Origin: a virus
Strand: one strand, 5' to 3'
DNA length: 64,000 nt
IMG/VR virus record: IMGVR_UViG_3300024054_000015
Span: 1 to 64,000 of that record
In this document: positions 31,042 to 54,606 of the stretch, in pieces
Layout: every line of letters begins with the position of its first letter
How positions within the stretch are numbered: position 1 is the first letter of the stretch
Notes under the pieces: generated by a model
Told to the model about the DNA's origin: nothing
The model's database searches: none
Seen by the model: the letters and a program-made list of their open reading frames with translations, nothing else
Position numbers and translations under genes: made by a program

Positions 31042-31451
31042 AGCTTTACTCCCAACTTTTCCATTCTGGCCGTTACCTCGGCCATCTCTTCATCACTCAA
31101 GGTTACTCCAGCCTGCTCGCAGGCTTGCAGTGCTGCCAACAGGGCTTGCATTTCATCCAGTTGCCCTCGCAGCTTCTTCGGCCTGTTCTTCTCTGCAATA
31201 AGTTCATTCTGCTTCTCGTTACTCTTATGGTAGCACGCCTGGCATACCGTCGTAACGTTCCAAGTGTCATAACCATTCTGGTTAATCAACAGCCTCGTAG
31301 CTTCCACTTCCTCCGCCTCCTCCACTGTAAGGCAAGGCTTGCAGTGGTAGGGGCAGTTTCGGCATCGTCCTATTCGGTACACTTCAGGTGGCATACTACC
31401 TGCCCTCCCGTCCTTATTTCCAAATGGTAATATTCTAATCATTCGCTCCAC
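31038..31451 (-). CDS. Cys-containing hypothetical protein
   Basis: CRNC..HCKPC...CQAC. Confidence 0.6.
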   Translation of the reverse strand: MERMIRILPFGNKDGRAGSMPPEVYRIGRCRNCPYHCKPCLTVEEAEEVEATRLLINQNGYDTWNVTTVCQACYHKSNEKQNELIAEKNRPKKLRGQLDEMQALLAALQACEQAGVTLSDEEMAEVTARMEKLGVKL

Positions 31452-31518
31452 GCCTTACACTGCCTGCGCTGCCTGCTATACGCTGCGCCACTGTGTAGGC
31501 AAAAACCAATAGGCGCAA

Positions 31519-31550
31519 TAAAGCCCGTATGGCAAGCCATACGGGCTTTA
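31519..31550 (-). terminator. Intrinsic terminator of the island gene
   Basis: Perfect IR TAAAGCCCGTATGGC-AA-GCCATACGGGCTTTA just past the stop; T-rich tail on minus strand. Confidence 0.75.
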
Positions 31551-31566
31551 CGTGCGCTGCGCTGTG

Positions 31567-31920
31567 TTACTTGCCAGCGCTTACCAGCATGTAGTAGGCT
31601 GTGCCACCAACGGTAGTACCGTTGTTGCCAACGTAGCCGCCAGTGGTAACGCTTACCACTTGGCCAGCGCTGGCAAGCTTGCGCAATGTGCCGCGCAGTG
31701 GTGCCCATACAAGCTTGCCATTGCTGCGCTTGCGCGGCTTAAAGCCGCAAGCTTGCGCTACTTGGCGCAGTGTGTAGGGCTTACCTGCCTGCAAGCTTGC
31801 AAGTACTGCGCTGCCTTGCGGCGCTGCCTGCGCTGTGCTGGCAAGCGCTGCCTGCAATGCTGCAAGCGCTGCCTGTTGGGGGCTGGTGGTGGTGCTGGTG
31901 GTGGTGCTGGTGGTTGCCAT
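31567..31920 (-). CDS. Basic winged-helix-like DNA-binding protein with no Asp/Glu (117 aa)
   Basis: VLASLQAGKPYTLRQVAQACG...LRGTLRKLASAGQV..wing; TTAGGGG RBS; own promoter and terminator. Confidence 0.7.
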   Translation of the reverse strand: MATTSTTTSTTTSPQQAALAALQAALASTAQAAPQGSAVLASLQAGKPYTLRQVAQACGFKPRKRSNGKLVWAPLRGTLRKLASAGQVVSVTTGGYVGNNGTTVGGTAYYMLVSAGK

Positions 31921-31997
31921 GTGCGTTACCCCTAAGCTGGTGGTGCAGTACCGTTGCTGCCACATTGGCAGCAACCGGCGTAACAGTGGCAACAACC

Positions 31998-32013
31998 GCA
32001 AGCGCTGTGCCAA
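31998..32013 (-). promoter_or_regulatory. Sigma54 (RpoN) -24/-12 promoter
   Basis: Minus strand TTGGCACAGCGCTTGC about 80 nt upstream of the ATG at 31920. Confidence 0.7.
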
Positions 32014-32147
32014 TGGCGCGCAAAATGGCTACAAGTGGCAGCGCGCGCGCACATATATGTTGTGTGCGCGCGCCGCCCCTGCCGGTCATTCACCATACAG
32101 ACTCATAGAAAGTTTGGATAACATGGAAATACGACTATTGGAAATAT

Positions 32148-34686: not shown

Positions 34687-34902
34687 ATGGCACATAAATA
34701 CAGCAATTATCGTGGTCGTCCAAGGAAGTATCCATGGAAGACCTGGTTCAAAAACTCTGTGACCCATTTGGTTCGTGGTAAGGACTACCAGTGTGAACCT
34801 TATAGTCTGGCTATACAGATACGCAGGATGTCTAACATCCTGGACATTCCAGTTACGGTCTCCGTACATGCAGAGCGGGTGACCATTACGAGGTTGAAAT
34901 GA
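34687..34902 (+). CDS. Small basic DNA-binding-like protein
   Basis: RGRPRKYPW (AT-hook-like). Confidence 0.6.
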   Translation: MAHKYSNYRGRPRKYPWKTWFKNSVTHLVRGKDYQCEPYSLAIQIRRMSNILDIPVTVSVHAERVTITRLK

Positions 34903-35363
34903 ACTACACAGAGAAAGACTTAAAAAGGTTCTGGAGCAGAGTCAACAAGTCTGGACCTGTTCATCCAGTTCATGGAACCTGTTGGAATTGGAAGACTTGG
35001 GATGGACGTAACTTCTATCACTATGGTGACTTCTTCTGCCAGGGAAGAATCTACAGGGCTCACAGGTTTTGCTGGGAGCTCCTTGTTGGACCAATTCCAG
35101 AAGGACTTATCGTCTGTCACAAGTGCGATAACGGAGGTTGTGTTAAGCCTAGTCATTTGTTCCTTGGCACTTACCAAGACAATATGACTGACGCCTCTGT
35201 TAAGGGTAGGATGAAAAGTCCTAAAGCTAAATTGAACAAGACTCAGGTTAGAAGAGTGAGGCAGGGTAAGGAATCCTTGGCCAAGCTGGCTAGGGAGTTT
35301 GGAATAACTGTTCCGGCGTTGATTCAAGTGAGAAAGAGAACTACTTACAAGTGGGTGAAATAA
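34899..35363 (+). CDS. HNH endonuclease
   Basis: CWNW, AHR, VCHKCDNGGCVKPSHLFLGT..DN; C-terminal HTH. Confidence 0.9.
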   Translation: MNYTEKDLKRFWSRVNKSGPVHPVHGTCWNWKTWDGRNFYHYGDFFCQGRIYRAHRFCWELLVGPIPEGLIVCHKCDNGGCVKPSHLFLGTYQDNMTDASVKGRMKSPKAKLNKTQVRRVRQGKESLAKLAREFGITVPALIQVRKRTTYKWVK

Positions 35364-35863
35364 TGCCTAAGCTCCCTATTCCTATAGTCATTAAACCTGA
35401 ACCTTGGTTCATTGGAGTAGATCCAGGTCAGTCTGGAGGAATCGCTGTAGTCTCTTTCAGTGTAAAGTGTGAGTACCTTTTCAAAATGCCTGAGACAGAG
35501 CAGGGCATTTGGGAGCTCTTTAGAGACCTATCAGTTGCATGTGAGTGTCGTGCTGTGATAGAGAAGGTTCACGCCATGCCTAAGCAGGGTGTATCATCCA
35601 CATTCAAGTTTGGCTGTGGATATGGTGGGCTTAGGATGGCTCTAACTGGAAACCTAATTCCATTTGAGGAGGTTTCTCCACAGACTTGGCAGAAGCAAAT
35701 GGGTATCCGTCCTCGAGCAAAGACGGAGAGCAAGAACGATCACAAAAACAAGCTCTTAGCAGCCGCCCAGCGACTATTTCCTGGACCGAGAATTACCAAG
35801 GCTACTGCTGATGCTCTATTGCTGGCGGAATACCTGCGTCGTGAGTACAGGGGAGTCATGTAA
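35363..35863 (+). CDS. RuvC-like Holliday junction resolvase
   Basis: IGVDPGQSGGIA, IEKV, PQTWQK, ADALLLA. Confidence 0.85.
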   Translation: MPKLPIPIVIKPEPWFIGVDPGQSGGIAVVSFSVKCEYLFKMPETEQGIWELFRDLSVACECRAVIEKVHAMPKQGVSSTFKFGCGYGGLRMALTGNLIPFEEVSPQTWQKQMGIRPRAKTESKNDHKNKLLAAAQRLFPGPRITKATADALLLAEYLRREYRGVM

Positions 35864-36432
35864 TGCCTAGAGTTGGCGATACTCCTTGGCAACGCTTTAA
35901 GCTCAAGTGGTCTGACTGTACGCAGTGTGAACTGTGTCAGGTACGGAAGAAGATCGTGCTGTGTCGTGGCAGTATCCCCTGTGATGTACTCCTGATTGGT
36001 GAAGCTCCTGGAGCCAGCGAAGACGTAATAGGTCAACCGTTCGTTGGACCTGCCGGTCACTTGTTGGATGAGCAGGTAGAGAATGTCATGAAGAACCTGG
36101 ACTTCCCAGAGATCAGCTTCTGCTTCACCAACCTAGTATGCTGTATCCCCAAGGTTCATGGCCGAAAGATCACTGAACCTATGGAGGAGCATGTGGACTC
36201 CTGCCAGCAGAGGAGGCTCGAGTTCATCCAGTTGTGCCAGCCTAAGATTATAGTCTCTGTTGGAGACTTGGCCTACAAGTACCTGGAGAGGGATGAGTTG
36301 GAAACCGTTAAGATCACTCATCCTGCGGCAATCCTCAGGGCTGAGGTTGTAAGGCAAGGACTTATGTATCAGAAAGTGGTGGTAACTCTAGAAAACGCCA
36401 TAAGGGATCTGTTAGATGGACAAGTTCATTGA
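35863..36432 (+). CDS. Uracil-DNA glycosylase family 4-like protein
   Basis: CxxC, IGEAPG..ED..GQPFVGPAG, TNLVCC, HPAA. Confidence 0.88.
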   Translation: MPRVGDTPWQRFKLKWSDCTQCELCQVRKKIVLCRGSIPCDVLLIGEAPGASEDVIGQPFVGPAGHLLDEQVENVMKNLDFPEISFCFTNLVCCIPKVHGRKITEPMEEHVDSCQQRRLEFIQLCQPKIIVSVGDLAYKYLERDELETVKITHPAAILRAEVVRQGLMYQKVVVTLENAIRDLLDGQVH

Positions 36433-40606: not shown

Positions 40607-40832
40607 AATCTATGAACCATTGGATATGCACACAGAGTGTCGGCGGATAATCAAGCTCCGCATTGCGGAGCTTGGGCTCCTGCGGGCGGAAGTGGAGCGG
40701 TTGCGGAAGGCGTTGCTGTGTCCAGAGTGCGCTGGGAAAGGACAAGTGGCTGTGTTTGGTATCACTACCGTTAACTGGATGGACTGCCCCAACTGCGAGG
40801 CAGCGAAGATCCGAAAGGAAGCACAGAAATGA
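40599..40832 (+). CDS. Small Zn-finger protein
   Basis: EVERLR, CPECAGKG...CPNC. Confidence 0.6.
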   Translation: MSKIYEPLDMHTECRRIIKLRIAELGLLRAEVERLRKALLCPECAGKGQVAVFGITTVNWMDCPNCEAAKIRKEAQK

Positions 40833-42325
40833 GTAAGACTAGAAAGTTGCAGTTTGAGAATCTCGAGTCCCGTCAGTTGCTCTCGACCGATCTATGGCCG
40901 AAAGGGGTGGGACTGAAGGCCGATGTCTTCGTCGATGGCGGGGTTGAATTGTCGAAGGTGTCGTTGGCAAAATCCGCCAACCTCGCTGGACTCACACGCG
41001 AAGTGTTCTTCACCAACAGTGGTGCGACGACGCGCGCTGTGATCGGTGGCAATGCCAACGATACCAACGGTGCTCTGCTGTTCCCGGATGGCCAGCCGCG
41101 ATTTGGCACCATCTATGTCAACGGCGGATCGGCGGGTCATGCCAAGATAATGGGCGCGGCGGGGCGACAAGCAATAGAAACCTTCTATGCCCACGGAGGT
41201 TCCTACACCGGCTCGTGTGCTGGTGAGTTTGTGGCAGCACGTCGTATTCCGTCGCTTTGGGGCGGGAAGGTTGGTAATCAAGGTAACACAGGAAGACAAA
41301 CCATTACGTTTGATGAAACCGACCATCCGCTGGTGCAGGATTTGATGCGCTGGAACGGCGGCAGTAATGTCGTCACCAACGTCCCGCACTATTGGGGACC
41401 GACGAACCGGGAATCTTATCCGCATCCCGAGGGGACGCTGTTCCTCGGCACGATTACGGGCGGGCTGTATCGTGGAACCGATTTCCTCGTCGAATACCAA
41501 CGCGATGCGGAATCGGGGGTAACGGTGCTCAGCCCCTCCCATCCTGAGTATGGTAGGCAGGCTAGTCATACAGCCTTGATGGCGTCGATACTAAAGCGGG
41601 CCAACGATCTGTCGCGCACCACACCGGACCTGAAGGGCACGCTGGTTAGCGACCAGTCCTTGGAAATGAGCGGCCCGGAACAGAAAGTCGGTGATGGGCA
41701 GTATCACAGATATACGCTCGAGGTTCCAGAGGGAACGAGCGTACTGTACGTGGGTCTCACCAACCTTAGCGGCAACGCTGACCTCTTTATACAGAAGGAT
41801 GGCGTAGCGCACGCTGGTAGCTACCTAGTGAAGTCAACCAACGTCGGCGATGACATGGTGGCAATTCCAAGCCCGGAGGCTGGCACGTATGAGATCAGTG
41901 TGTTCGGGGCACATACGGTGTTGAATGGTGCAGCCTACACTTTGTCAGTGAAAGCTCAAGCGGTGGACATGGTACTAGCGGAAGCGGAGATGAACATGAG
42001 TGACGAGGTGAAGGTCGAAGGTCCGTACACCTTCGGGTTGACCCCTGGCTCCAAGTTGGAGGTCCAGACCATTGAAGGTCAGGAGATCGATCGCCTGCGG
42101 GTGGAAATGGATCAGTTACAAAAGAAACTGGATGAGGCTAACAAGTTGTTGGCCGCGTCGATGCGACTGTTGAAGAATCGCGATTACTATTGGAGTTGGA
42201 ACTATAAGCTGGAGCAATACGGCTACTTCAGCCAGGGTGAGTACGTCGGTACGGAGTTACTGGACGTGGTGAAACTGGAGGCCAGACTCGCAAATGAAAG
42301 AGCCAGCAACAGTAACGCCAGTTGA
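40829..42325 (+). CDS. Planctomycete-type exported protein: BPL_N/GATase-like domain plus PPC domain
   Basis: N-terminal RKLQFENLESRQLLS; GGSYTGSCAG and SHPE; PPC-like GNADLFI...PEAGTYEISVFG. Confidence 0.7.
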   Translation: MSKTRKLQFENLESRQLLSTDLWPKGVGLKADVFVDGGVELSKVSLAKSANLAGLTREVFFTNSGATTRAVIGGNANDTNGALLFPDGQPRFGTIYVNGGSAGHAKIMGAAGRQAIETFYAHGGSYTGSCAGEFVAARRIPSLWGGKVGNQGNTGRQTITFDETDHPLVQDLMRWNGGSNVVTNVPHYWGPTNRESYPHPEGTLFLGTITGGLYRGTDFLVEYQRDAESGVTVLSPSHPEYGRQASHTALMASILKRANDLSRTTPDLKGTLVSDQSLEMSGPEQKVGDGQYHRYTLEVPEGTSVLYVGLTNLSGNADLFIQKDGVAHAGSYLVKSTNVGDDMVAIPSPEAGTYEISVFGAHTVLNGAAYTLSVKAQAVDMVLAEAEMNMSDEVKVEGPYTFGLTPGSKLEVQTIEGQEIDRLRVEMDQLQKKLDEANKLLAASMRLLKNRDYYWSWNYKLEQYGYFSQGEYVGTELLDVVKLEARLANERASNSNAS

Positions 42326-43296: not shown

Positions 43297-43962
43297 ATGG
43301 TCATATCTACCGCCTGCTGGGGCGGAAGAAAGAAATACCAGCTAGAGTTTTACAAGAATTATCATACAGAATGGAGTCAATTAGTGGGACCATTTCTTGA
43401 TAAGTTAAGGAAGACTCTGGACGAGAAGCCAGTAGCTATATGGACGCCTAGGCCAGAAGTCTTGCTTCTTCCGCAGATTCCCAAACCCATGCACGGACTT
43501 GCTCCTAGGGTAATCCTTGGAGACAAGTGGTGGAATGAGACTAGACGTGCTGCCTACAATAAAACTGACAATCATTGTATCGCCTGTGGAGTTCACAAAA
43601 CCCGAGCTAAGGGTCCAAAATGGATGGAGGCCCACGAGGTCTACCGTACTAACTATCTACAGGGCAGAATGGTCTTTCTGGAAGCTGTTCCACTGTGTCA
43701 CTACTGTCACAACTTCATACATAGTGGGCGTCTGCAGGCCCTCTTGGATAAGCACAGAATCACACAGCAGCGGTTTACCTCTATTATCCAACATGGTGAG
43801 CGCGTGCTTGGTCAGGCTGGTTTGGAGAAGGCTCCGCCATACGAAGGTAAAATCGCGCCGTGGTCAAGCTGGCGTCTCGTGTTGAACCGTAAGATGTATA
43901 AGCCACGCTTCAAGTCAGCAGAGGCTTGGGCTAAACACTTCGGGGTAGAATTGGAGGAGTAA
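43297..43962 (+). CDS. HNH-like Zn-binding protein
   Basis: CIACG, AHEVY, LCHYCHNFIH; likely start is the GTG at 43384. Confidence 0.65.
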   Translation: MVISTACWGGRKKYQLEFYKNYHTEWSQLVGPFLDKLRKTLDEKPVAIWTPRPEVLLLPQIPKPMHGLAPRVILGDKWWNETRRAAYNKTDNHCIACGVHKTRAKGPKWMEAHEVYRTNYLQGRMVFLEAVPLCHYCHNFIHSGRLQALLDKHRITQQRFTSIIQHGERVLGQAGLEKAPPYEGKIAPWSSWRLVLNRKMYKPRFKSAEAWAKHFGVELEE

Positions 43963-43963
43963 G

Positions 43964-45970
43964 GTGCCGAAAGTAAAGGAGCATATCTATGCCTTGGATA
44001 CCGAAGCTACAGGGTTAGATCTAAGGCATGGGGCTAGGCCGTTCTTTGTCAGCATTTGCACACAGGACAACGAGGTACACTATTGGGAAGCTACAGTTGA
44101 TCCACTAACTAGGAGGCCTTATTGGAAAGAGGAGGACTTGTATGAAATCCAGGAGATGATAGATGAGGCCGATACCTTGGTCCTGCAAAACCCTCGGTAC
44201 GACTTTCGTGGGCTGGACCTGTTGGGACTCAGGGCTGGTACTCCAAGGAATTGGATCAAGGTCCGCGATACGTTAATGGCTGGGCATCTGCTAGTGTCCA
44301 ATCAGCCACATGATCTAACCACTATGGCTATGATCTATCTGAGGCTGAACATTCAACCACTTGAGGACAAGCTGGAGGCAGCGGTTAAGGAGGCCGTTAG
44401 GATTGCCAAGCGCAAGTACCCTAAGTGGAGGTTGGCTAAGAAAGACCTGCCCGAGATGCCTAGTGCCAAGGACAAGGTCTGGAAGTACGACTCCTGGCTA
44501 CCCAAGGCTATTGCCGCAGCAGAGGGCTACGAGCCTGACCATGACTGGTGGACCGTTCTAGCAAACTACGGCAACGGCGACAGTAGTGTGACCCTGCCGT
44601 TGTACTTAGCCCAGGAGAAGCTGCTAATCAAGGCTGGGCTTTACAGTATCTACAAGTTCCGGCTCAAGCTGTTGCCAACCATCTACAAGATGGAAACACA
44701 TGGCATGACTATGAGTAAGGAGCGGACCACCGAACTACTGGCTAGGCTCACAGATGAATCCGAGCAGTGTCGCGCTAACTGTATAGAGCTCTCTGATGGA
44801 GAGTTGGAGGACTTGCCCGTTAATGGAATGAGCAATGCTCTACGGCATGTGCTGTTTGAGAAGTTCTCCTTACACTCACCTAAGCAAACAGCCGCAGGAA
44901 AGTCCAGTGCTGACAAGTTCGTGCTGGACCACTGGATCGCTACTCTTCCAGAAAGTTCCAGGGCTTGGAAGTTTGTTAACGACCTGAAGAGGTACCGAAA
45001 GCGTAAGACTGCCATAGGGTACATTCACTCCTATGAGAAGTTCTGGCAGCATACGGTAGTCACGCTGCGTGGTAGTGGTACTGTCATGATAGTGTACCCC
45101 TCGTATAATCCGACGGGCACAGATACGCTGCGGTTCAGTAGCCAGAACCCTAATGCCCAACAGGTCAGCAAGCAGGAGGAGGTCAACACTCGCTACTGCT
45201 TTGGTCCAGCCCCAGGTCGTGAGTGGTGGTCCATAGACTTCTCCAACCTGGAGTTGCGTATCCCAGCCTACGAGTCGGGCGAAGAGGAGATGATATTCCT
45301 GTTCGAGCATCCGAACGATCCACCCTACTATGGCTCCTACCACATGATGATCTTCGACACGCTGCACCCTAACCTGTTCCTGGAACATGGTATGGAGTGC
45401 AAGAAGGTCTTCGAGTCTACGTGGTATCAGTGGACCAAGAATGGAAACTTTGCTGTGCAGTATGGGGCTGTGGAGCATAGTGGTACGGCAGATAAAGCCT
45501 ACCACGTACTAGGAGCCCAGCGTAAGATCATGTCGCGGTTCACTAGGATCAAGCAACTCAGCAATCGGTGGATCGAGTTCGCCAATAAGTCTGGCTATGT
45601 GGAAACAATGCCCGACAAGACAGTGGACCCTATTCGGGGTTATCCCCTATACTGTACCCGCACCAACTACGGCAAGGTCTTGGAAACAGTGCCTCTAAGC
45701 TACCACGTTCAGGGTACTGCCATGTGGATCACCTGTAGGGCGATGATTGACTGCCAGAACTACTTGGACATACATAAGAGTAGTGGTGGCAGGATAATCT
45801 CACAGATCCATGACGAGATCCTGTTCGACTTCCCGGTAGGTGTAGGCAAGCACCATGTTGGGAATCTTAGGAAGCTAATGGAGCAGGTAGGTCAGGATAT
45901 TGGGGTTCCATTGGCAACCACTTGCGGCTATCATCCAGTAACTTGGGCCAAGTCGGAGAACTATCAGTGA
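43964..45970 (+). CDS. DNA polymerase family A with 3'-5' exonuclease
   Basis: DTEATG, DFSNLELR, KNGNFAVQYG, QIHDEI. Confidence 0.93.
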   Translation: MPKVKEHIYALDTEATGLDLRHGARPFFVSICTQDNEVHYWEATVDPLTRRPYWKEEDLYEIQEMIDEADTLVLQNPRYDFRGLDLLGLRAGTPRNWIKVRDTLMAGHLLVSNQPHDLTTMAMIYLRLNIQPLEDKLEAAVKEAVRIAKRKYPKWRLAKKDLPEMPSAKDKVWKYDSWLPKAIAAAEGYEPDHDWWTVLANYGNGDSSVTLPLYLAQEKLLIKAGLYSIYKFRLKLLPTIYKMETHGMTMSKERTTELLARLTDESEQCRANCIELSDGELEDLPVNGMSNALRHVLFEKFSLHSPKQTAAGKSSADKFVLDHWIATLPESSRAWKFVNDLKRYRKRKTAIGYIHSYEKFWQHTVVTLRGSGTVMIVYPSYNPTGTDTLRFSSQNPNAQQVSKQEEVNTRYCFGPAPGREWWSIDFSNLELRIPAYESGEEEMIFLFEHPNDPPYYGSYHMMIFDTLHPNLFLEHGMECKKVFESTWYQWTKNGNFAVQYGAVEHSGTADKAYHVLGAQRKIMSRFTRIKQLSNRWIEFANKSGYVETMPDKTVDPIRGYPLYCTRTNYGKVLETVPLSYHVQGTAMWITCRAMIDCQNYLDIHKSSGGRIISQIHDEILFDFPVGVGKHHVGNLRKLMEQVGQDIGVPLATTCGYHPVTWAKSENYQ

Positions 45971-46356
45971 AGGCTAAGTGTGTAGCTATCTTAGATACTA
46001 TGTGGGGAGGATCTGGCAAGGCTCCAGGTATGTTTAGGATAAACCCTAAGAACCACACAGGCCGGAGGCTGTACTGGTTCCTCGGCCACAAGGATCTATG
46101 GGTTACGAATGCCTGCACAGAGTACGTCGCCAATGCCAAGCTGCACGGGAGGCCAGACCCTAAGAGGTTGGCAACTAACCTCCAGAGAGTCACCTGTGAC
46201 CTATTGCTGGTCTGTGGTTCGGTGGCTGCTAAAGCCTTTAGGAAGTGTGGCTACAAACCGAAGTGTAGGGTCATATACATTCCGCATCCAGCTTGGCGTG
46301 GTTGGACAATGGAGCACTTGGAAGAAGTGAGAAGGAGAATACAAGATGAAGATTGA
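45967..46356 (+). CDS. Divergent UDG-superfamily-like protein
   Basis: WVTNAC, LLVCGSVA, IPHPAWR. Confidence 0.55.
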   Translation: MKAKCVAILDTMWGGSGKAPGMFRINPKNHTGRRLYWFLGHKDLWVTNACTEYVANAKLHGRPDPKRLATNLQRVTCDLLLVCGSVAAKAFRKCGYKPKCRVIYIPHPAWRGWTMEHLEEVRRRIQDED

Positions 46357-47224
46357 AGATGTTAGGAAGCTAAGCCCAGAAGGGAGGTTTCTGTATTGGG
46401 TTGGGGAAAGATGGAATATCCTTAGCAAGAGAAGGAGTGGCTATGTAAGGCCCTGGACGAATGACAAGATCTTACAGTCCTACTACTTTACCAATGTGAA
46501 GCGTAAGGATGACAAGGTCACCATCTGGGTTACTGAGAACATTATTGGACCAATGCAATGGGATCCACTGGTCATCTTTGCAGTCCTAGCCTTTCGGTGG
46601 TTCAACCAACCCCAACCTTCTGGAGAGTATCTAGTAAGTCATGATCTTCTAAAGCTGTGGAACTGCGAGTTGGCAGTGAAGGGACTTACAGGGTTCAAGA
46701 ACGCGGGCTTGAAAGTGTTCACTGGAGCCTTTAACATTTCCAATGGAGGTAGTAGCAAGCCTAAAGTCAACCGCGTCTGCGAGGACTACATCCAGCCAGT
46801 ATGGGAGTGTCGAGAGAACTTACTGAACCGTATATTAGAGCCCAAGGAGCGTACCCTCGCAAGAGCCTTTGAGGTAATCTCCGAGTATCCAGGTATGGGT
46901 GGCAGTGGCTTCATGGCTGCTCAGGTTGTCTGTGATCTAGCCTACACACACTTTCTAGAGGATGCTAAGGACTTTGAAACATGGTGTTCCTGGGGTCCGG
47001 GAAGTAGACGTGGTATGAATAGAGTGTGTGGCTTTGATGAAAACTTTCCAATGCCAGCAGGGGATTGGAATGTTAGACTTCAACGCTTGCGTGGGGTCAT
47101 CAGTAGGAAGCTTGGCCTAAACCTCCATGCCCGCGATGTTCAGAACTGTCTATGTGAGTTCTCGAAATACGAAAGGGCTTTGTGGAATCAAGGTCACTTA
47201 AAGAGGAGGTACAAGGGTGCCTAG
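46346..47224 (+). CDS. 5-hmdU DNA kinase-like protein (aGPT-Pplase1 family)
   Basis: PWTNDKILQSYYFTNVKRKDD, FRWFN, GPGSRRG, QNCLCEFSKY. Confidence 0.85.
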   Translation: MKIEDVRKLSPEGRFLYWVGERWNILSKRRSGYVRPWTNDKILQSYYFTNVKRKDDKVTIWVTENIIGPMQWDPLVIFAVLAFRWFNQPQPSGEYLVSHDLLKLWNCELAVKGLTGFKNAGLKVFTGAFNISNGGSSKPKVNRVCEDYIQPVWECRENLLNRILEPKERTLARAFEVISEYPGMGGSGFMAAQVVCDLAYTHFLEDAKDFETWCSWGPGSRRGMNRVCGFDENFPMPAGDWNVRLQRLRGVISRKLGLNLHARDVQNCLCEFSKYERALWNQGHLKRRYKGA

Positions 47225-48134
47225 AATACAGGAGCAGTTGATTGTCTATGTCCCCACTAGGGGAAGAGCTCGCAAGCAGACAACCCTCAAGCAGTTTGAC
47301 CTCTATAAAAGGCCAGACGTGTTTGTAGTGGTTCCAGAGTGTGAACGCAGGTTGTGGACTAGGGATGTGCTGGTAGTTCCAGACGACTACAAGTTTTCTG
47401 ACATTCGGCAGTTCATCCTTAACTGTCCTGGGAAGTACCATCTGGTGTTGGATGACGACCTAAGACCCGCGGTCAGAAGGATCGACGATCCAACTAAGTT
47501 CACCAACCTAGAGGTTATGGACAGGGCTTCTAGGGCAGACCATATTGACCAACTGTTTGATACGATACTGTCGTTACTCCAAGAGGGATGGGTGCATGGA
47601 GGCATTGCGGCTCGGCAAGGGGCCAACAACGACACCAATCAGTATCAGTTCTGTAGTCGGGTGGTAAGAGCCCACTTCTACAACGCAGAGATTGTGAAGA
47701 GTCTAGGACACGACTTTCGGCAGTTCGTTATTAAGCAGGACTATGACTTCATCCTGTCCATGCTGTGTAAGGGGATCCCTAACATAGTGATAAACGAATA
47801 TGTCCAGGATCAGGTTGGCAGTAACACTTCAGGAGGTTGCTCCAGGTATAGGACAAGCTCGGTGCTAGAGGAAGGAGCTAATCTACTACACCAGAAGTAT
47901 CCAGACTTCGTAAAGGTGGTGCATAAGCACCCCAAGACTTCCTGGGGAGGAAAGCCTAGAGTGGATGTAGTGATCCAGTGGAAGAAAGCCTATAAGGAGG
48001 GGTTAGAGTATGCCCGTCATTTACAGAGAAAGAATCCGGCCTCCATGGACAATAAAGATAGAGCAATCGCGCGGTTGCAACCTCTCATGCAAGTTCTGTC
48101 CAATAAACTACTTGAAGGAAATCAACCAAAGTAG
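47217..48134 (+). CDS. TAGT/GREB1/JGT-like DNA glycosyltransferase
   Basis: VPTRGR, RQFIL, VLDDD, QDYDF, GGCSRYRT, QWKKAY. Confidence 0.75.
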   Translation: MPRIQEQLIVYVPTRGRARKQTTLKQFDLYKRPDVFVVVPECERRLWTRDVLVVPDDYKFSDIRQFILNCPGKYHLVLDDDLRPAVRRIDDPTKFTNLEVMDRASRADHIDQLFDTILSLLQEGWVHGGIAARQGANNDTNQYQFCSRVVRAHFYNAEIVKSLGHDFRQFVIKQDYDFILSMLCKGIPNIVINEYVQDQVGSNTSGGCSRYRTSSVLEEGANLLHQKYPDFVKVVHKHPKTSWGGKPRVDVVIQWKKAYKEGLEYARHLQRKNPASMDNKDRAIARLQPLMQVLSNKLLEGNQPK

Positions 48135-48906
48135 GAAGTTCCTAAGCCCCTCAATGTGTAGGATTATTACTCGGCAGGCAGTGGAGCTAAAGCCCAACCT
48201 GAGAGTGGAACTGACCCTTAGAGGGGAGCCTACTCTAAACCCGCACATTCTGGAGAACCTCTCCATTATTAGAGAGGAGGCGCCTGAGTTCCAGATAAGT
48301 CTGTTCACCAATGGGGTGAAGACCTTTGGTGATCCGTCCCTGATCGTAGCGTTGCTGGATGCAGGTGTGAACATCCTGTGCATCGATTGCTACAACAATA
48401 CCTACCAGAGATTTCTCGAAGCTGCCAAGAGAACCAAGGAGCAGGTCGTGGACTTCAGGGAGTTCTCTGCCTACAAGAGATACAGGAACGGTCATAGGCT
48501 ACGGGTTATCAACCTAGTACCCGACATCCAGGAGGGATCTGTAGACGTCAGGAAGATCCACAATAACGCTGGAAACGTGGACCCCGAGTACCTGTCTAAA
48601 CTTGAGGGCTACGTTAAGCAAGCCCTACCATTGGCCCGAGGATGCTCTAGACCATTCACTGAGGTTGTGGTCTACTACAATGGGGATGTTCCAATCTGCT
48701 GTAGTGATTGGAAGGCTGAGTATGTCCTAGGTAATGTTATGGACCAAGACCTATCGGACATCTGGTATGGTAAGAGACACTACGAAGCCTTGGTGAAGCT
48801 TCACATGTCTAGGGCAGATAGAAGTCTACCTCCATGTGCCAAGTGTGACTACCACGGTGGGTATCGTCTTGGACTTCTGCAAGATCCAATAAAAAACCCC
48901 CGCTGA
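48010..48906 (+). CDS. Radical SAM/SPASM protein
   Basis: CNLSCKFC, GEPTL, CSRPF..GDVPICC.DW..LGN..CAKC. Confidence 0.9.
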   Translation: MPVIYRERIRPPWTIKIEQSRGCNLSCKFCPINYLKEINQSRKFLSPSMCRIITRQAVELKPNLRVELTLRGEPTLNPHILENLSIIREEAPEFQISLFTNGVKTFGDPSLIVALLDAGVNILCIDCYNNTYQRFLEAAKRTKEQVVDFREFSAYKRYRNGHRLRVINLVPDIQEGSVDVRKIHNNAGNVDPEYLSKLEGYVKQALPLARGCSRPFTEVVVYYNGDVPICCSDWKAEYVLGNVMDQDLSDIWYGKRHYEALVKLHMSRADRSLPPCAKCDYHGGYRLGLLQDPIKNPR

Positions 48907-48929
48907 ACACCGTTCAACGAGGGTTGTTT
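48892..48929. terminator. Bidirectional terminator candidate
   Basis: A-run, imperfect hairpin and T-rich tail between convergent genes. Confidence 0.5.
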
Positions 48930-48950
48930 GTGTTGATCGTAGTTGCCGTG

Positions 48951-49271
48951 TTAGCTCTTTGATTCCTTCAGGGCTTTTTCCAGGGCTTTTCGACCAACGG
49001 GTGTAATCTTGAATCTCTTGCCACGCTTGCCTTCCTCGGCCACCAGTTCCTGTAGATATCCTTTCTCCACAAGCTCGGGCAGTCGGCGTCCCTTGTCGAT
49101 CCCGGTCGAGGAACTGATCTCAGCGGCAGTCAACACGCTACCACTCTTCAGCGAGTCCAACACCTTCATCATGTTGGGAGTAAGATCCTTTGGCTCCCGA
49201 GGGGTTTGCTCCTTCTTCTCCTCCTTGGCGACCTTTCCCTTCTTCACTGGAAGTTCTGCTGTCTTGGGCAT
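48951..49271 (-). CDS. Winged-helix protein (paralog of the C-terminus of ORF 28809)
   Basis: LTPNMMKVL...TAAEISSSTGI...GKRFKITPVGRK; AAGGAG RBS. Confidence 0.75.
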   Translation of the reverse strand: MPKTAELPVKKGKVAKEEKKEQTPREPKDLTPNMMKVLDSLKSGSVLTAAEISSSTGIDKGRRLPELVEKGYLQELVAEEGKRGKRFKITPVGRKALEKALKESKS

Positions 49272-49317
49272 CAAATGCTCCTTTAGAAATGTAACCAACA
49301 AAACACCACTACCTTGC

Positions 49318-49345
49318 ATTGTAGGGTATAATGAAGTATTGGCAA
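49318..49345 (-). promoter_or_regulatory. Sigma70-type promoter
   Basis: TTGCCA-16-TACAAT on minus strand; overlapping plus-strand TATAAT at 49327. Confidence 0.55.
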
Positions 49346-49411
49346 GTCCTAGCTGAAAAATTTGTTCAAATAGTTGCAACTCGTGTTCCCACTCTCACTT
49401 AGGAGCAGACA

Positions 49412-50458
49412 ATGCACCTGTCTTACATGAATGTGAACGCCGCTTTCAACGACTTGGTGTGCAAGTTCCACTACAGTGAAATCCCCATAACTGTAGCCCC
49501 TAGTAGGAATGGGGACGTGATCATGGCGACCCAGCCCATGACCATCACCTACCTGAACCCCAAGCAAAGAGTCTTGTTTAACGAGGCTCGGGATTGCAAC
49601 CCATTCTTTCATCTGTTTGAGTCCTTGTGGATACTGGCTGGCAGGGATGACGTCGCTCCTCTGAAGTATTTTGTGTCTACGATTAATGAGTTCTCTGACA
49701 CAGGTTTCACGTTCAATGGTGCCTATGGTCAGAGATTGAGGTACTTCCATAGGATTGATCAGATTAAAGAGGCCATTGCCCAACTGAAGCACAACCCAAA
49801 CTCTAGAAGGGTAGTGCTACAGATGTGGACTCTCTCAGACATGATGAAAGCTGACAACAGACATGGAACCATGTCCAAGGACGTTCCATGCAACACACAT
49901 GCCTACGTCTCTATCAACCCACTTGGCCTAGAACTAACTGTCTGTAACCGAAGCAACGACATGATCTGGGGAATGCTGGGAGCCAATGTCGTACACTTCT
50001 CTTTCCTTCAGGAATACTTGGCGGCTTGTATAGGAGTTCCGGTCAACGTCTACAATCAGTTCACTAACAACCTACACGTTTACCGAAGCAACTGGAAGCC
50101 AGATGAATGGTTGAGTGACCGGACCGAGGATCTGTATAGTATGCCACGCGTCTTGAGAGCAGTGCCCTTAGTAAAAGACGTAGAGAGGTTCAACTACGAG
50201 TGTGCAGAGTTCATAGACCTAAAGGAGGATGGAGTCTATCAGGAACCATTTCTTAACGACGTAGCTGTCTGGGCTTGCTTGGGGTACAGACACCATAAGA
50301 ACCGGGAGTACCCTCGAGCTCTGGAAGCTGTGTCCAGGATAGAGTCTGATGATTGGAGAGTTGCTTGTCGTAGGTGGTTGGAACGAAGGTCAGTAGCTTG
50401 GAGGAAGAAGAATGGAGATGTCGAAAGAGCCGAGAGTTGTGATAACGCTGAGGCTTAG
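49412..50458 (+). CDS. Thymidylate synthase homolog, probably dUMP hydroxymethylase
   Basis: GAYGQR, SRRVV, DVPCN, RSNDMIWG..GAN (Asn indicates uracil specificity), NLHVY. Confidence 0.85.
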   Translation: MHLSYMNVNAAFNDLVCKFHYSEIPITVAPSRNGDVIMATQPMTITYLNPKQRVLFNEARDCNPFFHLFESLWILAGRDDVAPLKYFVSTINEFSDTGFTFNGAYGQRLRYFHRIDQIKEAIAQLKHNPNSRRVVLQMWTLSDMMKADNRHGTMSKDVPCNTHAYVSINPLGLELTVCNRSNDMIWGMLGANVVHFSFLQEYLAACIGVPVNVYNQFTNNLHVYRSNWKPDEWLSDRTEDLYSMPRVLRAVPLVKDVERFNYECAEFIDLKEDGVYQEPFLNDVAVWACLGYRHHKNREYPRALEAVSRIESDDWRVACRRWLERRSVAWRKKNGDVERAESCDNAEA

Positions 50459-50690
50459 TAAGCTCGAGAGGGACAAGTTGATTGACAAGGCTAACAAGAT
50501 GGGCATTAGCCTGAACGAGTACCTGAGGTTTAGATTAGGATTCCCCCTAAATGAAAAGAGTACCAAGATCATCAGCGCTCCAAACCCCTATCTCATCAAC
50601 GAACTTTCCAGATCTATCGCTACCGAACTTGCCAGACAGGAGGCCAGTCCTAACAAAGCAGGACTTTGCCCGCCGGTATCGTTCGGGTGA
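50412..50690 (+). CDS. Ribbon-helix-helix protein
   Basis: ITLRLS...KANKMGISLNEYLR. Confidence 0.65.
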   Translation: MEMSKEPRVVITLRLSKLERDKLIDKANKMGISLNEYLRFRLGFPLNEKSTKIISAPNPYLINELSRSIATELARQEASPNKAGLCPPVSFG

Positions 50691-51174
50691 GTTCGGCAAT
50701 GCCGCCCCTACGTGGGATTGCAGTATCGAGCTACTCCGTTCTGGCTATCTAGATCCAGTACATCTACGCTGTAGGGAGTCTAGTGGAGCAACCTTCTACA
50801 ACCTGGAGCCTTCAGAAGCTCTACGCATGTGGAAGGCAATGCCCTTCCCAGAGATGTACTACTGCTCGGCAATGGCTCCACATGGTAGGGGAACCATCCA
50901 AGGCGAAGTACAGCAAACAGAAAGGGGTTTGTCACTGTTGGCCTTTAGTGCCGACATAACTATGCGGGATGCTATGGCAAGGCGTGGTGTGGAGCTACAT
51001 GGCATCCTTGCCGTCCACTTACTGAAGATGAACATGTGTCCTAAGAGCTATGACTGGCTTCAGTTCCTACTGGAGGCCTATCCACTTCATGTTGTGGAGT
51101 TCACTTGCTTTGATTGTAATTGGGGTACGTTACCTGGATTCAACACCGTCTTTTGGGAGGTCCGCCTGTATTAG
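50551..51174 (+). CDS. Hypothetical protein
   Basis: 207 aa; GEFGN...HVVEF...WEVRLY. Confidence 0.6.
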   Translation: MKRVPRSSALQTPISSTNFPDLSLPNLPDRRPVLTKQDFARRYRSGEFGNAAPTWDCSIELLRSGYLDPVHLRCRESSGATFYNLEPSEALRMWKAMPFPEMYYCSAMAPHGRGTIQGEVQQTERGLSLLAFSADITMRDAMARRGVELHGILAVHLLKMNMCPKSYDWLQFLLEAYPLHVVEFTCFDCNWGTLPGFNTVFWEVRLY

Positions 51175-51183
51175 GAGTTCTAA

Positions 51184-51729
51184 ATGCCGTTTACACAGAA
51201 AATTTTAGACAGATTCTGGTCCAAGGTAGATAAGAAAGGTCCTATCCATACAGCCTATGGGAAATGTTGGACCTGGAGTAGTGCAATTAACAATAAAGGA
51301 TACGGTGTGTTTAGCCTACGTAGAGGTAGAAATTCCTACTCTCACAGGCTATCTTGGAGGATTCATTATGGTAAGATTCCGGACGGGATGTGTGTACTTC
51401 ACAAGTGCGACAACCCAAGATGTGTAAATCCAAGCCATTTATTTCTTGGATCTCACAAGGACAACACGCAGGACATGATTAGAAAGGGAAGGAGAGGATA
51501 CACTGGAGTATCTGGAGACTCAAATCCTTCCAGGACTCATCCAGAGTGTTTAGCTAGAGGCTCTAGTCATGGAATGGCAAAGCTATCAGAAGGTCAAGTT
51601 TTAGAAATTCTTAAACTTAGAAAGGTTGGGTATACGCAGGCCAGATTAGGAAAGATGTTTGGTGTTAGCAGGGAGCAGATTAAGAATATTGTCAACAATA
51701 AGCAGTGGAGACATGTCGTATGTCAATGA
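51184..51729 (+). CDS. HNH endonuclease
   Basis: RFWSKVDK, CWTW, VLHKCDNPRCVNPSHL; related to ORF 34899. Confidence 0.9.
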   Translation: MPFTQKILDRFWSKVDKKGPIHTAYGKCWTWSSAINNKGYGVFSLRRGRNSYSHRLSWRIHYGKIPDGMCVLHKCDNPRCVNPSHLFLGSHKDNTQDMIRKGRRGYTGVSGDSNPSRTHPECLARGSSHGMAKLSEGQVLEILKLRKVGYTQARLGKMFGVSREQIKNIVNNKQWRHVVCQ

Positions 51730-52337
51730 CTCTAAAAGAGTATCAACAGTTAGCTCTACGAACGGAATGTGATCAAAATCGCAGTCTTAACAACATTGTT
51801 CATCATCAGCCTCCACTTATTACTGTTAGGGCGCTACACAGTGTGATTGGAATGTCTGGAGAAGTAGGTGAATTATCTGGGTCCATAGAGAAATGGATCT
51901 ACTATGGACAACCCTTGGATGTTTTGAATATCAAAGAGGAGATAGGAGACCTACTATGGTATGTGAATCAGTTATGCAGCGTGTTACATCTGGACCTAGG
52001 ACAGATCATGGAGGCCAACATTGCCAAGCTGAGACAACGCTATCCCCAGAAGTTCGAGGAAGTCTTAGCCAAGGAAGAGAACCGCGACCGTGCTGCTGAG
52101 GCGGAGTGTGTAGCCTGTAGCACAGGTGGAAACATGAACTGTTCGGAGGAAGTCACGGAGAGTGGATCCGACTTCATCAAGCATCAAATGCTGAATAAGC
52201 CTAGGACTGCTCTCTGCCCTCATTGTGGTGGGCATCTGAATAGACAGGCTTGTAACAGGGCTGCTGAGGGTGGTAGGTCCGTAGCGTGCCCAGACTGCTT
52301 GAAATCGTTTTCCGTTAAGGAGATCAGATACGCATGA
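51726..52337 (+). CDS. MazG-like nucleotide pyrophosphohydrolase with C-terminal Zn ribbon
   Basis: GEVGEL...KEEIGDLLWY...NIAKLRQRYP. Confidence 0.85.
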   Translation: MTLKEYQQLALRTECDQNRSLNNIVHHQPPLITVRALHSVIGMSGEVGELSGSIEKWIYYGQPLDVLNIKEEIGDLLWYVNQLCSVLHLDLGQIMEANIAKLRQRYPQKFEEVLAKEENRDRAAEAECVACSTGGNMNCSEEVTESGSDFIKHQMLNKPRTALCPHCGGHLNRQACNRAAEGGRSVACPDCLKSFSVKEIRYA

Positions 52338-53229: not shown

Positions 53230-54606
53230 ATGCCGAGATTGCCAGCACTTGAAGAGCCCTTACAGCCTGCCACCCAAACAAGCCCAGCAAGGCCCCTACA
53301 AGCCCGTTTAACGCATTTGCGGGCTTTATTGGGGTTGGTGCAGCCTGTACCGCGCGCGTGGCTTGTAGGGGCTGCTAGGGGCCTTAAAAGCCATGCCACT
53401 AGTTCGGGGGGTGAAGAAACTACCATTAGACTTAAATCCTGCGAGTCGTATCAAGATCTCGTGAAGGCTTGGCGTAAGGCCCTCAAGTGGTCTCCAGGTC
53501 TTGATAACACGTTAGCAGTGATGTTAGCCTCGAGCTTCTCTACACAGTTCGTTGGAGAGCAGTTGTGGCTTAAAGTCATCGGGCCTCCTAGTTGTGGAAA
53601 GACAACCCTAATGGAAGGGTTAGCCACTGCTAGGAAGTGGTATTTGAGTAAAGATACCATACGAGGCTTTCATAGTGGTTGGAAGCGTGAGGACAATGCA
53701 GACGTATCGTTAGCCGATATGGTCAAGGGAATGACATTAGGGACTAAGGATGGCGATACACTCCTCAAGGCTCCCAACCTCAAACAGATACTAGCCGAGG
53801 CTCGAGCTCTCTACGATCGTGTATCCAGAACCAACTACCGCAACGATACCAATCGTGAGTACCAAGGTCATCGCATGACTTGGCACCTAGCAGGCACTAA
53901 CGCTCTTAGGGAGATCGACGACTCAGAGCTTGGTGTAAGGTTTCTGGACGTAGTGGTAATGGATAAGATTGATGACGAGTTCGAGTACGAGGTCTGCTGG
54001 AGGGCTGTCAACCAAGAGATGATCAACATGCGTCATCTCTCTGACGGAAAACCCGAAACGCAGTATCCTGAGGATTTGGCTAATGCAATGGCCCTTTCTG
54101 GAGGATATCTCGACTTCCTCAGGACTAATGCTGTGGAGCTAGCTCGTAGTCTAGAGTTGTCTGATGAAAGCGTCGTTAATCGCTGTATTCAGCTAGGGAT
54201 CTTCACAGCCTTTATGCGTGCTAGATCTGGTGCTAACTCCGAGGAAGCTACTCGTGAGTTTGGCCCTAGACTAACGACACAGTTAGGGCGATTGGCTACA
54301 GGATTAGCCTGTGTCTTCAACAAGCCTAGAGTTGATGATGAGGTCATGCACAAGACTTGGCAAGTCGCTATGCACACATCCAGAGGGCCTACGTTAGAGC
54401 TCGTGAAGGTTCTACACAAGATCCCTCAAGGGATAGAAGTGCGTGGTTTAGCAGCCCTAATGCGTGCTAATGATGACAAGCTGCGCGCGCAGTTAAGATT
54501 CTTGCGAGCTATTGGTGTAGTGGAAACTGATGTGAACTTTAAGCGTTGGCGTATAACTCCCAAGCTATCCAAGCTCTATGAGGCTGTCAATGCCCAGAGA
54601 TCCTAA
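53230..54606 (+). CDS. Replicative helicase-like AAA+ ATPase
   Basis: GPPSCGKTT; follows primase; C-terminal wHTH-like region. Confidence 0.7.
   Translation: MPRLPALEEPLQPATQTSPARPLQARLTHLRALLGLVQPVPRAWLVGAARGLKSHATSSGGEETTIRLKSCESYQDLVKAWRKALKWSPGLDNTLAVMLASSFSTQFVGEQLWLKVIGPPSCGKTTLMEGLATARKWYLSKDTIRGFHSGWKREDNADVSLADMVKGMTLGTKDGDTLLKAPNLKQILAEARALYDRVSRTNYRNDTNREYQGHRMTWHLAGTNALREIDDSELGVRFLDVVVMDKIDDEFEYEVCWRAVNQEMINMRHLSDGKPETQYPEDLANAMALSGGYLDFLRTNAVELARSLELSDESVVNRCIQLGIFTAFMRARSGANSEEATREFGPRLTTQLGRLATGLACVFNKPRVDDEVMHKTWQVAMHTSRGPTLELVKVLHKIPQGIEVRGLAALMRANDDKLRAQLRFLRAIGVVETDVNFKRWRITPKLSKLYEAVNAQRS
53289..53385. repeat. Dispersed 96-97 bp inverted-repeat element, copy 3
   Basis: AAGGCCCCTAC...CTAGGGGCCTT, 97 bp; lies inside a 150-nt GA/TC-free stretch. 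Confidence 0.75.

Follow-up and report, generated by a model that had tools for sequence, protein, structure and literature searches.

The virus record IMGVR_UViG_3300024054_000015 comprises 80,045 bp with a CheckV completeness of 100%, and the window analyzed here is its first 64 kb (64,000 nucleotides). Directly after the gene for DNA polymerase A (PolA) the window carries a cassette of genes that was originally predicted to be an unusual thymidine-hypermodification set, containing a 5-hydroxymethyldeoxyuridine (5-hmdU) kinase, a TAGT-like glycosyltransferase (GT) and a radical S-adenosylmethionine (SAM) enzyme. Here we analyze this cassette in the complete record and compare it with related loci in other viruses. 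The record is present in seven lake-water metagenome runs (2018 and 2025), which give assembled contigs and thus hold no read-level modification signal. We found no cultured phage close to the 80-kb genome at the DNA level.

Gene content of the cassette

The genes are listed in Table 1. PolA, the short protein resembling uracil-DNA glycosylase (UDG), the PF18723 protein (hereafter HEL), the TAGT glycosyltransferase, the radical SAM enzyme (rSAM), the thymidylate synthase (TS) homolog and the MazG-like pyrophosphatase are all confirmed on the plus strand. Their order is also as predicted, although two genes between TS and MazG (a 207-aa open reading frame (ORF) and an HNH endonuclease) had been left out. 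In NCBIfam no family scores above its cut-off for any of the cassette proteins.

Table 1. Genes of the cassette and a second UDG-superfamily gene, with positions in the window
Gene product	Position	Strand	Family matches
PolA, family A DNA polymerase	43964-45970	+	PF00476 E 9e-34; phrog_17 E 4e-59
Short UDG-superfamily ORF (129 aa from GTG 45967; frame open from TTG 45922)	45967-46356	+
HEL, PF18723 HMUDK_hel (formerly aGPT-Pplase1)	46346-47224	+	PF18723 E 1.4e-38
TAGT/JGT-type GT-A glycosyltransferase	47217-48134	+	PF20691 E 3.6e-10; phrog_842 E 5e-35
BtrN-like twitch radical SAM enzyme (rSAM)	48010-48906	+	PF04055 + PF13186 (Radical_SAM + SPASM)
TS homolog	49412-50458	+	PF00303 E 1e-20; phrog_5131 E 4e-93
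207-aa ORF without family match	50551-51174	+
HNH homing endonuclease	51184-51729	+	PF13392 E 6e-15; phrog_59 E 5e-36
MazG-like dNTP pyrophosphatase, C-terminal zinc ribbon	51705-52337	+	PF03819 E 1e-9; phrog_229 E 7e-33
Canonical UDG-superfamily protein of the replication module, outside the cassette	35863-36432	+	PF03167 E 1e-17

What sets the cassette apart is the combination of these genes with the absence of others. The claim that the set comes without an amino acid:DNA transferase (ADDT) or a pyridoxal phosphate (PLP) enzyme had been made for the window and extends to the whole 80,045-bp genome. The hidden Markov model (HMM) searches of the full genome that had been proposed return PF18723 for HEL and a single TAGT copy, and the ADDT model (PF18724, formerly aGPT-Pplase2) finds no match at E <= 1. 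The same threshold gives no match to Tet_JBP (PF12851), nor any tblastn match to the kinase gp49 and the transferase gp46 of phage PaMx11; iterated profiles of these two proteins find nothing in the genome either. Among 50 proteins scanned against Pfam there is no PLP enzyme. A six-frame scan for Walker A motifs retrieves a replicative-type helicase, an AAA_24 protein, a UvrD-type helicase and, away from the replication module, three long ORFs; no ORF of kinase size has the motif. A P-loop 5-hmdU kinase adjacent to the PF18723 gene, as in M6 (gp54-gp55) and PaMx11 (gp49-gp50), is likewise missing, and the glycosyltransferase gene occupies that position. Because the genome has no such kinase, a phosphorylated 5-hydroxymethyluracil (hmU) intermediate is without support, and the glycosyl-phospho-hmU suggested earlier as a possible product loses the enzyme that would make it.

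Glycosyltransferase and radical SAM enzyme

The glycosyltransferase scores 40.5 bits against PF20691 (cut-off 27.5) and is the sole TAGT of the genome. It carries a DxD motif (D79-D80-D81); all 33 homologs compared have D80, and among them D81 is conserved to at least 90%. PDB sequence searches with the protein and with its profile gave nothing usable. From its membership of the TAGT family the enzyme is predicted to glycosylate a 5-hydroxymethylpyrimidine in DNA.

The last 125 nt of its gene overlap the rSAM gene (48010-48134), compared to an overlap of only 11 nt for the counterpart pair in locus L004. The conserved glycosyltransferase domain stops near residue 262, and the tail of approximately 40 residues that follows is lineage-specific. 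A frameshift at the overlap could be ruled out, given that the domain ends at about residue 262 and that the N-terminus of rSAM matches its homologs from Met1 onwards.

For rSAM both sequence and fold point in the same direction. The nearest PDB sequence is BtrN (E 3e-8), the 2-deoxy-scyllo-inosamine dehydrogenase of butirosin biosynthesis. An AlphaFold2 (AF2) model with a predicted local distance difference test (pLDDT) score of 91 has BtrN (4m7t) as its top Foldseek match as well (E 6.6e-15, TM-score 0.77 on the target), with the next family following at E 3e-9. Further fold matches are SpeY (a twitch dehydrogenase), DesII (a sugar enzyme) and anSME. Seven cysteines are invariant in 31 homologs: C23/C27/C30, which form a CX3CX2C motif, and C212/C230/C276/C279. 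The four C-terminal cysteines fit a single auxiliary cluster rather than a full SPASM domain, whose complete seven-Cys motif is lacking. BtrN shares both the CX3CX2C motif and four C-terminal cysteines, which have a similar spacing for one auxiliary cluster. Nonetheless, rSAM is only about 18% identical to BtrN, its predicted substrate is a sugar bound to DNA, and the genome has no aminotransferase partner. From the modeled fold we assign to rSAM a putative alcohol-to-ketone oxidation of a sugar or cyclitol.

Relatives of rSAM in cultured phages are distant. No match at E <= 1e-3 was found by tblastn in M6-type phages, including the M6 isomerase gp53, and the only cultured-phage matches are Campylobacter phage proteins with 24% identity. 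PADLOC reports a weak match to pVip (E 2e-6) that is confined to residues 21-104, the generic radical SAM core. Such core-only matches probably explain the 'viperin' annotations that appear near GT-A/ThyS genes in Pyle et al. (bioRxiv 10.1101/2023.12.21.572611).

Two further observations concern the surroundings of rSAM. A second radical SAM/SPASM protein is encoded at 12472-13515 on the plus strand (PF04055 E 1.5e-21; PADLOC pVip E 5e-18), distant from the cassette and within the plus-strand block upstream of 19.8 kb that we take for a structural or tail module. The 505-nt gap between rSAM and TS (48895-49411) contains a promoter-like site (49345-49318) and a terminator-like hairpin (48925-48895), both on the minus strand, and overlaps a 142-aa minus-strand ORF without family match. 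It may represent a small antisense transcription unit inside the cassette.

The PF18723 protein

HEL scores 133 bits against the PF18723 model (cut-off 25), covering profile positions 7-277 of 281. It is 34% identical to gp50 of PaMx11, and the homologous gene in the M6-like phage SN1 is labeled aGPT-Pplase1. Sequence searches of the PDB with HEL and its profile yielded nothing usable, and the protein was placed by fold search alone. The AF2 model (pLDDT 95) has as its closest fold in VIA-align 8z2n_B, which is PaMx11 gp46 or PUGT (Z 11.7, rmsd 4.1 Å over 227 aligned residues). The top 26 rows all concern helix-hairpin-helix (HhH) enzymes (PUGT, DUF2419, Ogg, AGOG, EndoIII and MutY) with Z between 6.4 and 11.7, and the next row drops to Z 3.0. 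Queuine-salvage DUF2419 ranks after PUGT and is followed by the HhH DNA glycosylases. At the profile level the relation is hardly visible: hhalign gives the PF18723 and ADDT families a probability of 5% and aligns only the HhH hairpin.

PUGT is a glycinyltransferase acting on 5-phosphomethyldeoxyuridine (5-PmdU), in which Cys247 is the nucleophile towards C6 and Glu243 and Thr244 are metal ligands (Wen et al. 2024, PMC11472151). Its Trp146 clamps the base and Lys150 binds glycine (PMC11472151). Nine residues of HEL are invariant in 46 homologs drawn from loci of both the glycosyltransferase and the kinase type: R22, N50, R53, D56, F189, D209, C270, E271 and K274. Comparison of motifs and of the overall fold suggests that 'QNCLC270EF' of HEL resembles 'ETILC247KW' of PUGT, that F189 corresponds to Trp146 and that the position of Lys150 is taken by Gln. 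The PUGT-like cysteine suggests a reaction at C6 of a 5-substituted uracil in flipped-out position. Of all assignments made here, that of a role to HEL is the least certain.

These results change the picture of HEL in two respects. The original prediction saw no transferase in the set; this stands as far as matches to PF18724 and gp46 are concerned, but HEL itself is a structural relative of an amino acid:DNA transferase. The prediction also regarded HEL as the 5-hmdU kinase. The protein contains no Walker A motif (GxxxxGK[ST]) and its model has an HhH fold. Moreover, the experimentally defined kinase of PaMx11 is gp49, a separate P-loop protein of 189 aa, with the HEL homolog gp50 being the next gene; in M6 the kinase is gp54 and the HEL homolog gp55. 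Judged from its modeled fold, HEL is therefore an HhH relative of the 5-PmdU glycinyltransferase and not a kinase, and its family is better described as the helical companion of the kinase.

Three metagenomic proteins (P0076, P0077 and P0078) show PF18723 fused to family A DNA polymerase (879 aa) and primase-helicase proteins (967 aa). Such fusions hint that the protein acts at the replication fork, though they could also be an artefact of gene calling.

Distribution of the cassette in other viruses

For a broader view we searched for viral loci from two starting points: the PF18723 protein retrieved 53, and an alignment of rSAM homologs 80. All ORFs in these loci were labeled with iterated profiles. 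A scan of viral contigs with the single rSAM sequence had found nothing. As the loci are stretches of at most 17 kb, all locus counts are lower bounds, and related contigs are not independent.

A glycosyltransferase accompanies rSAM in 74 of 82 loci (60 TAGT-like and 20 GT-B-like, PF00534-like). The same 82 loci contain TS in 47 cases, HEL in 38, a kinase in four and ADDT in none. Thirty-one loci have a glycosyltransferase gene followed by rSAM within 150 nt. All four genes (HEL, glycosyltransferase, rSAM and TS) are found together in 32 loci, often in the same order as in the window, and PolA is present in 46 of the cassette loci surveyed.

Starting from HEL, a pattern of exchange becomes apparent. 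Its 93 loci include 37 with a P-loop kinase, 34 with a TAGT-like and 15 with a GT-B-like glycosyltransferase. A kinase and a glycosyltransferase occur together beside HEL only once (L017), and ADDT is never found with a glycosyltransferase. A maximum-likelihood tree of HEL implies at least 8 to 13 switches of the partner type across branches with good support. In this tree PhiJL001 (glycosyltransferase) and PaMx11 (kinase) are sisters, and so are L057 (glycosyltransferase) and L007 (kinase). The repeated exchange of neighbors suggests that HEL works on, or presents, whatever O-activated hmU its partner enzyme makes.

Directly upstream of rSAM in kinase-type loci we observe a family of proteins of approximately 320 aa (L124:6991-7989, L096:6991-7986, L088:1231-2181 and L137:1493-2449), which is also listed for L063, L098, L009 and L029. 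No detectable relation to glycosyltransferases, PF18723 or ADDT was found for this family or for families f7 and f8. The ~320-aa family may constitute a third kind of partner enzyme.

Thymidylate synthase homolog and neighboring genes

The TS homolog scores 74 bits against PF00303 (cut-off 24.3) and has its catalytic Cys159 in 'PCN'. The uracil-specifying Asn that had been noted is indeed in place: in HMMER alignments with solved structures, Asn192 ('GANVVHF') shares a column with the Asn of thymidylate synthase ('PFNIASY'), a position held by Asp in MilA, a CMP hydroxymethylase specific for cytosine. 5-Hydroxymethylcytosine (5hmC) instead of hmU was rejected on the basis of Asn192. With PaMx11 gp51 the protein shares 42% identity (E 2e-69), and this together with its constant linkage to PF18723 predicts a dUMP hydroxymethylase.

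At the other end of the cassette, MazG would clear dTTP and dUTP, standing in for the HD phosphohydrolase of most related cassettes. In 58 related loci the gene after TS encodes an HD protein, which is not the case in this cassette. PolA, in turn, would incorporate hmdUTP.

The UDG-like ORF has no Pfam match of its own. Nonetheless, 34 of its 53 homologs from a library of 1.8 billion proteins match PF03167 (best E 5e-9), so that the label UDG-like holds by transitive homology. The family comprises 167 representative clusters and conserves W13, N48 ('VTNAC'), C83-G84 and H107-P108 (the His-Pro of motif B).

The 207-aa ORF has no match in Pfam, PHROGs, NCBIfam, hhalign or the ESM Atlas, and its only homolog by iterated search lies beside TS-HD in locus L064. 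The HNH gene of the cassette is probably a mobile insert outside the pathway. It is one of three HNH genes (34899-35363, 43297-43962 and 51184-51729) found at separate places in the module for replication and nucleotide metabolism. A further ORF amid the replication genes (40829-42325, plus strand) encodes a 498-aa protein that combines a PPC pre-peptidase domain with a weak Planctomycete-extracellular motif.

Proposed pathway and alternatives

Taken together, we consider it somewhat probable that the cassette works without a kinase and without an amino acid transferase: it would replace thymine by hmU, add a sugar to hmU in DNA and let rSAM rework this sugar. The substrate, the sugar and the product of this pathway are predictions that build on the identified domains and their folds, on the lack of kinase, ADDT, TET and PLP enzymes in the genome, and on the conservation of the gene set in other viruses. 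A radical-SAM-tailored sugar-hmU was among the products suggested originally, and it is the one that fits best with a glycosyltransferase of the TAGT family, a BtrN-like rSAM and the adjacency of the two in 31 other viral loci.

Four steps can be envisaged. In the first, the TS homolog would make hmdUMP from dUMP while MazG removes competing dTTP and dUTP, after which host kinases and the phage PolA would place hmU in DNA instead of thymine. This step is suggested by the families and the context of the genes. In the second, the TAGT/JGT-type GT-A enzyme would move a sugar from a nucleoside diphosphate sugar of the host to the 5-hydroxymethyl group in the polymer, yielding an O-glycoside resembling base J. 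In the third, based on fold and synteny, the BtrN-like rSAM would abstract a hydrogen from the attached sugar, and the likeliest outcome is the conversion of a secondary alcohol to a keto-sugar. A sugar is favored as the substrate because of the tight and repeated pairing of glycosyltransferase and rSAM. In the fourth, HEL most likely flips out hmU, which it would then either process itself or hand to the transferase; it would assist the glycosyltransferase in the way that it assists the P-loop kinase of M6-type phages.

Several points weigh against this pathway. It is predicted from genes, both here and in every phage that has the cassette, and whether the TS homolog acts as a hydroxymethylase or as a methylase is judged from homology and context. 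Four of the surveyed loci (L088, L096, L124 and L137) combine rSAM with a kinase and the ~320-aa protein and have no recognizable glycosyltransferase, so the substrate of rSAM need not be a sugar. Chemistry of the BtrN/anSME type could equally oxidize the CH2OH of hmU itself. As to HEL, its invariant Cys-Glu pair suggests that it catalyzes a reaction instead of merely assisting its partner, a glycoside would leave poorly in chemistry of the PUGT type, and the homolog gp55 of M6 is not required for glycine transfer in vitro (PMC8989533).

Among the alternatives, HEL might be a true group transferase. Cys270 would attack C6 and generate an exocyclic methylene, either from hmU activated by the glycosyltransferase or from plain hmU, and another nucleophile or a hydride would be installed (the latter giving thymine), such that the final base is not a simple O-glycoside. 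PUGT being the nearest structure, the invariance of Cys-Glu and the conserved base-clamping aromatic residue are all in line with this idea. The Gln at the position of Lys150, which fits a different co-substrate (PMC11472151), and the use of one protein family in both kinase-type and glycosyltransferase-type cassettes also speak for it. The leaving group is again the difficulty, as both a glycoside and a free hydroxyl leave poorly, and the M6 homolog is not needed for transfer in vitro (PMC8989533). The PF18723 and ADDT profiles, furthermore, barely align, and the equivalence is one of short motifs and overall fold. We therefore regard a transferase role as unlikely.

Another alternative leaves HEL aside and lets rSAM act on the base, converting the 5-CH2OH of hmU to 5-formyluracil or forming a C-C bond at that site, with the glycosyltransferase decorating the remaining hmU or a later intermediate. 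The fold matches include anSME, an oxidase of primary alcohols and thiols, M6 employs a different radical SAM enzyme on a base substituent (PMC8989533), and the four kinase loci mentioned above do without a recognizable glycosyltransferase. On the other hand, a glycosyltransferase is present in 74 of 82 rSAM loci and immediately precedes rSAM in 31, and the enzymes that act on secondary alcohols of sugars or cyclitols (BtrN, which is the best match by a wide margin, SpeY and DesII) argue for a sugar. This makes a base-acting rSAM quite improbable.

The chance that HEL is after all a 5-hmdU DNA kinase, with phosphate added before the sugar to give glycosyl-phospho-hmU, appears very small. PF18723 does carry the title '5-hmdU DNA kinase, helical domain' in Pfam, and phospho-sugars are known from SP-15-type bases (PMC12686479). 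Nevertheless, HEL has an HhH glycosylase fold without Walker A instead of a P-loop fold, the kinase and the HEL homolog of PaMx11 are separate proteins, no gp49 homolog is detected in the genome (tblastn at E <= 1 and iterated profile), and kinase and glycosyltransferase exclude each other beside the HEL family with a single exception in 93 loci.

Finally, we give hardly any credence to the idea that the glycosyltransferase and rSAM do not modify DNA, but rather glycosylate a component of the host or virion or, in the case of rSAM, modify nucleotides in the manner of viperin: the weak pVip match and the 'viperins' near GT-A/ThyS genes in Pyle et al. are in its favor, whereas the match is limited to the generic core of a BtrN-like fold with a twitch cluster, the genes are embedded among PolA, PF18723 and TS in at least 32 loci, and both TAGT and phrog_842 are families of DNA glycosyltransferases.

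GA/TC-free zones

The cassette had also been proposed as the likely cause of zones in the genome that are free of the dinucleotides GA and TC. The longest of these, at 31447-32086, spans 639 nt without GA and TC, compared to a longest gap of 58 to 93 nt for the other five complementary dinucleotide pairs. A second stretch of 150 nt is located at 53254-53404. The contig with the closest HEL (L111) likewise has a long GA/TC-free stretch of 478 nt (L111:15214-15692), which indicates that the trait is real and shared in the lineage. In each of the two long stretches the minus strand codes for a small protein that has neither Asp nor Glu. The two proteins have a similar T/A/Q-rich leader, and BLAST between them gives no significant similarity. 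None of the computations made revealed a link between the zones and the modification enzymes.

One speculative and rather unlikely scenario would nevertheless connect the two. HEL would be a covalent C6-nucleophile enzyme that pairs with an activator of the hmU hydroxyl (the kinase in M6-type phages, the glycosyltransferase here) and together with rSAM generates a new class of bases, for example thymine bearing a keto-sugar, a rearranged sugar or a C-linked sugar. If the base were placed in a TC/GA context, this might account for the complete transcription units without GA and TC that are maintained in the lineage.

Comparison with known systems

The clusters of M6/YuA and PaMx11 (Lee et al. 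2018, 2021, PMC5889632, PMC8989533; Wen et al. 2024, PMC11472151) likewise have a homolog of dUMP hydroxymethylase and a PF18723 protein beside PolA. They also share a dNTP-clearing hydrolase and the modification of hmU after replication, which for the present cassette is predicted. In contrast to these clusters, the cassette lacks a P-loop 5-hmdU kinase, ADDT/PUGT and tailoring enzymes of the PLP, flavin adenine dinucleotide (FAD) or acetyltransferase type. A TAGT glycosyltransferase is found at the place of the kinase, a BtrN-like rSAM is present, and MazG is encoded instead of the HD hydrolase.

Base J of kinetoplastids (JBP1/2 and JGT) shares the predicted chemistry: a GT-A enzyme of the JGT/TAGT type would act on hmU in DNA in both systems. 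The differences are that hmU would be made before replication by the TS homolog rather than by TET/JBP, that PF18723 and rSAM are additional, and that the whole genome would be modified, whereas base J is found at specific loci.

GT-A enzymes of the same family have been associated with TET/5mYOX and ThyS in phages (Burke et al. 2021, PMC8256090; Pyle et al., bioRxiv 10.1101/2023.12.21.572611). The latter describes, by metavirome mining, GT-A genes beside ThyS together with the 'viperin' annotations, and glycosyltransferases beside phage T-dioxygenases are likewise known from metavirome mining. The activity characterized in these systems is limited to glycosylation of 5hmC, and the searched text of both papers contains no mention of radical SAM/SPASM, aGPT-Pplase or hydroxymethylase.

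Among cultured phages, PhiJL001 (AY576273), a phage of alphaproteobacteria, has HEL (gp19), a TAGT-like glycosyltransferase (gp22) and TS (gp24) in the same order near PolA. It differs from the present cassette in lacking rSAM and in having HD-type neighbors. In the literature searched we found neither a phage combination of radical SAM, glycosyltransferase and hydroxymethyluracil nor a phage glycosyl-hmU; the alternation of kinase and glycosyltransferase was not searched for by name.

To our knowledge, all solved thymidine hypermodifications pass via phosphorylated hmU and an amino-acid or polyamine transferase. If the proposed pathway is true, it would be a second way of processing hmU, based on a sugar and comparable to a viral form of base J that is further tailored by a radical SAM enzyme. 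The cassette is not rare and is found in dozens of phages without a cultured isolate: its four genes occur together in 32 viral loci and rSAM with a glycosyltransferase in 74. The idea is directly testable because PhiJL001 has been cultured and hmU-DNA substrates exist. Bases of this kind block restriction enzymes and hinder sequencing, and the cassette could supply new DNA-glycosylating and DNA-oxidizing enzymes. Summarizing, the PUGT-like catalytic motifs and the repeated switching between kinase and glycosyltransferase neighbors make these comparative data the first functional handle on PF18723 (aGPT-Pplase1), including its homologs in M6 and ViI.

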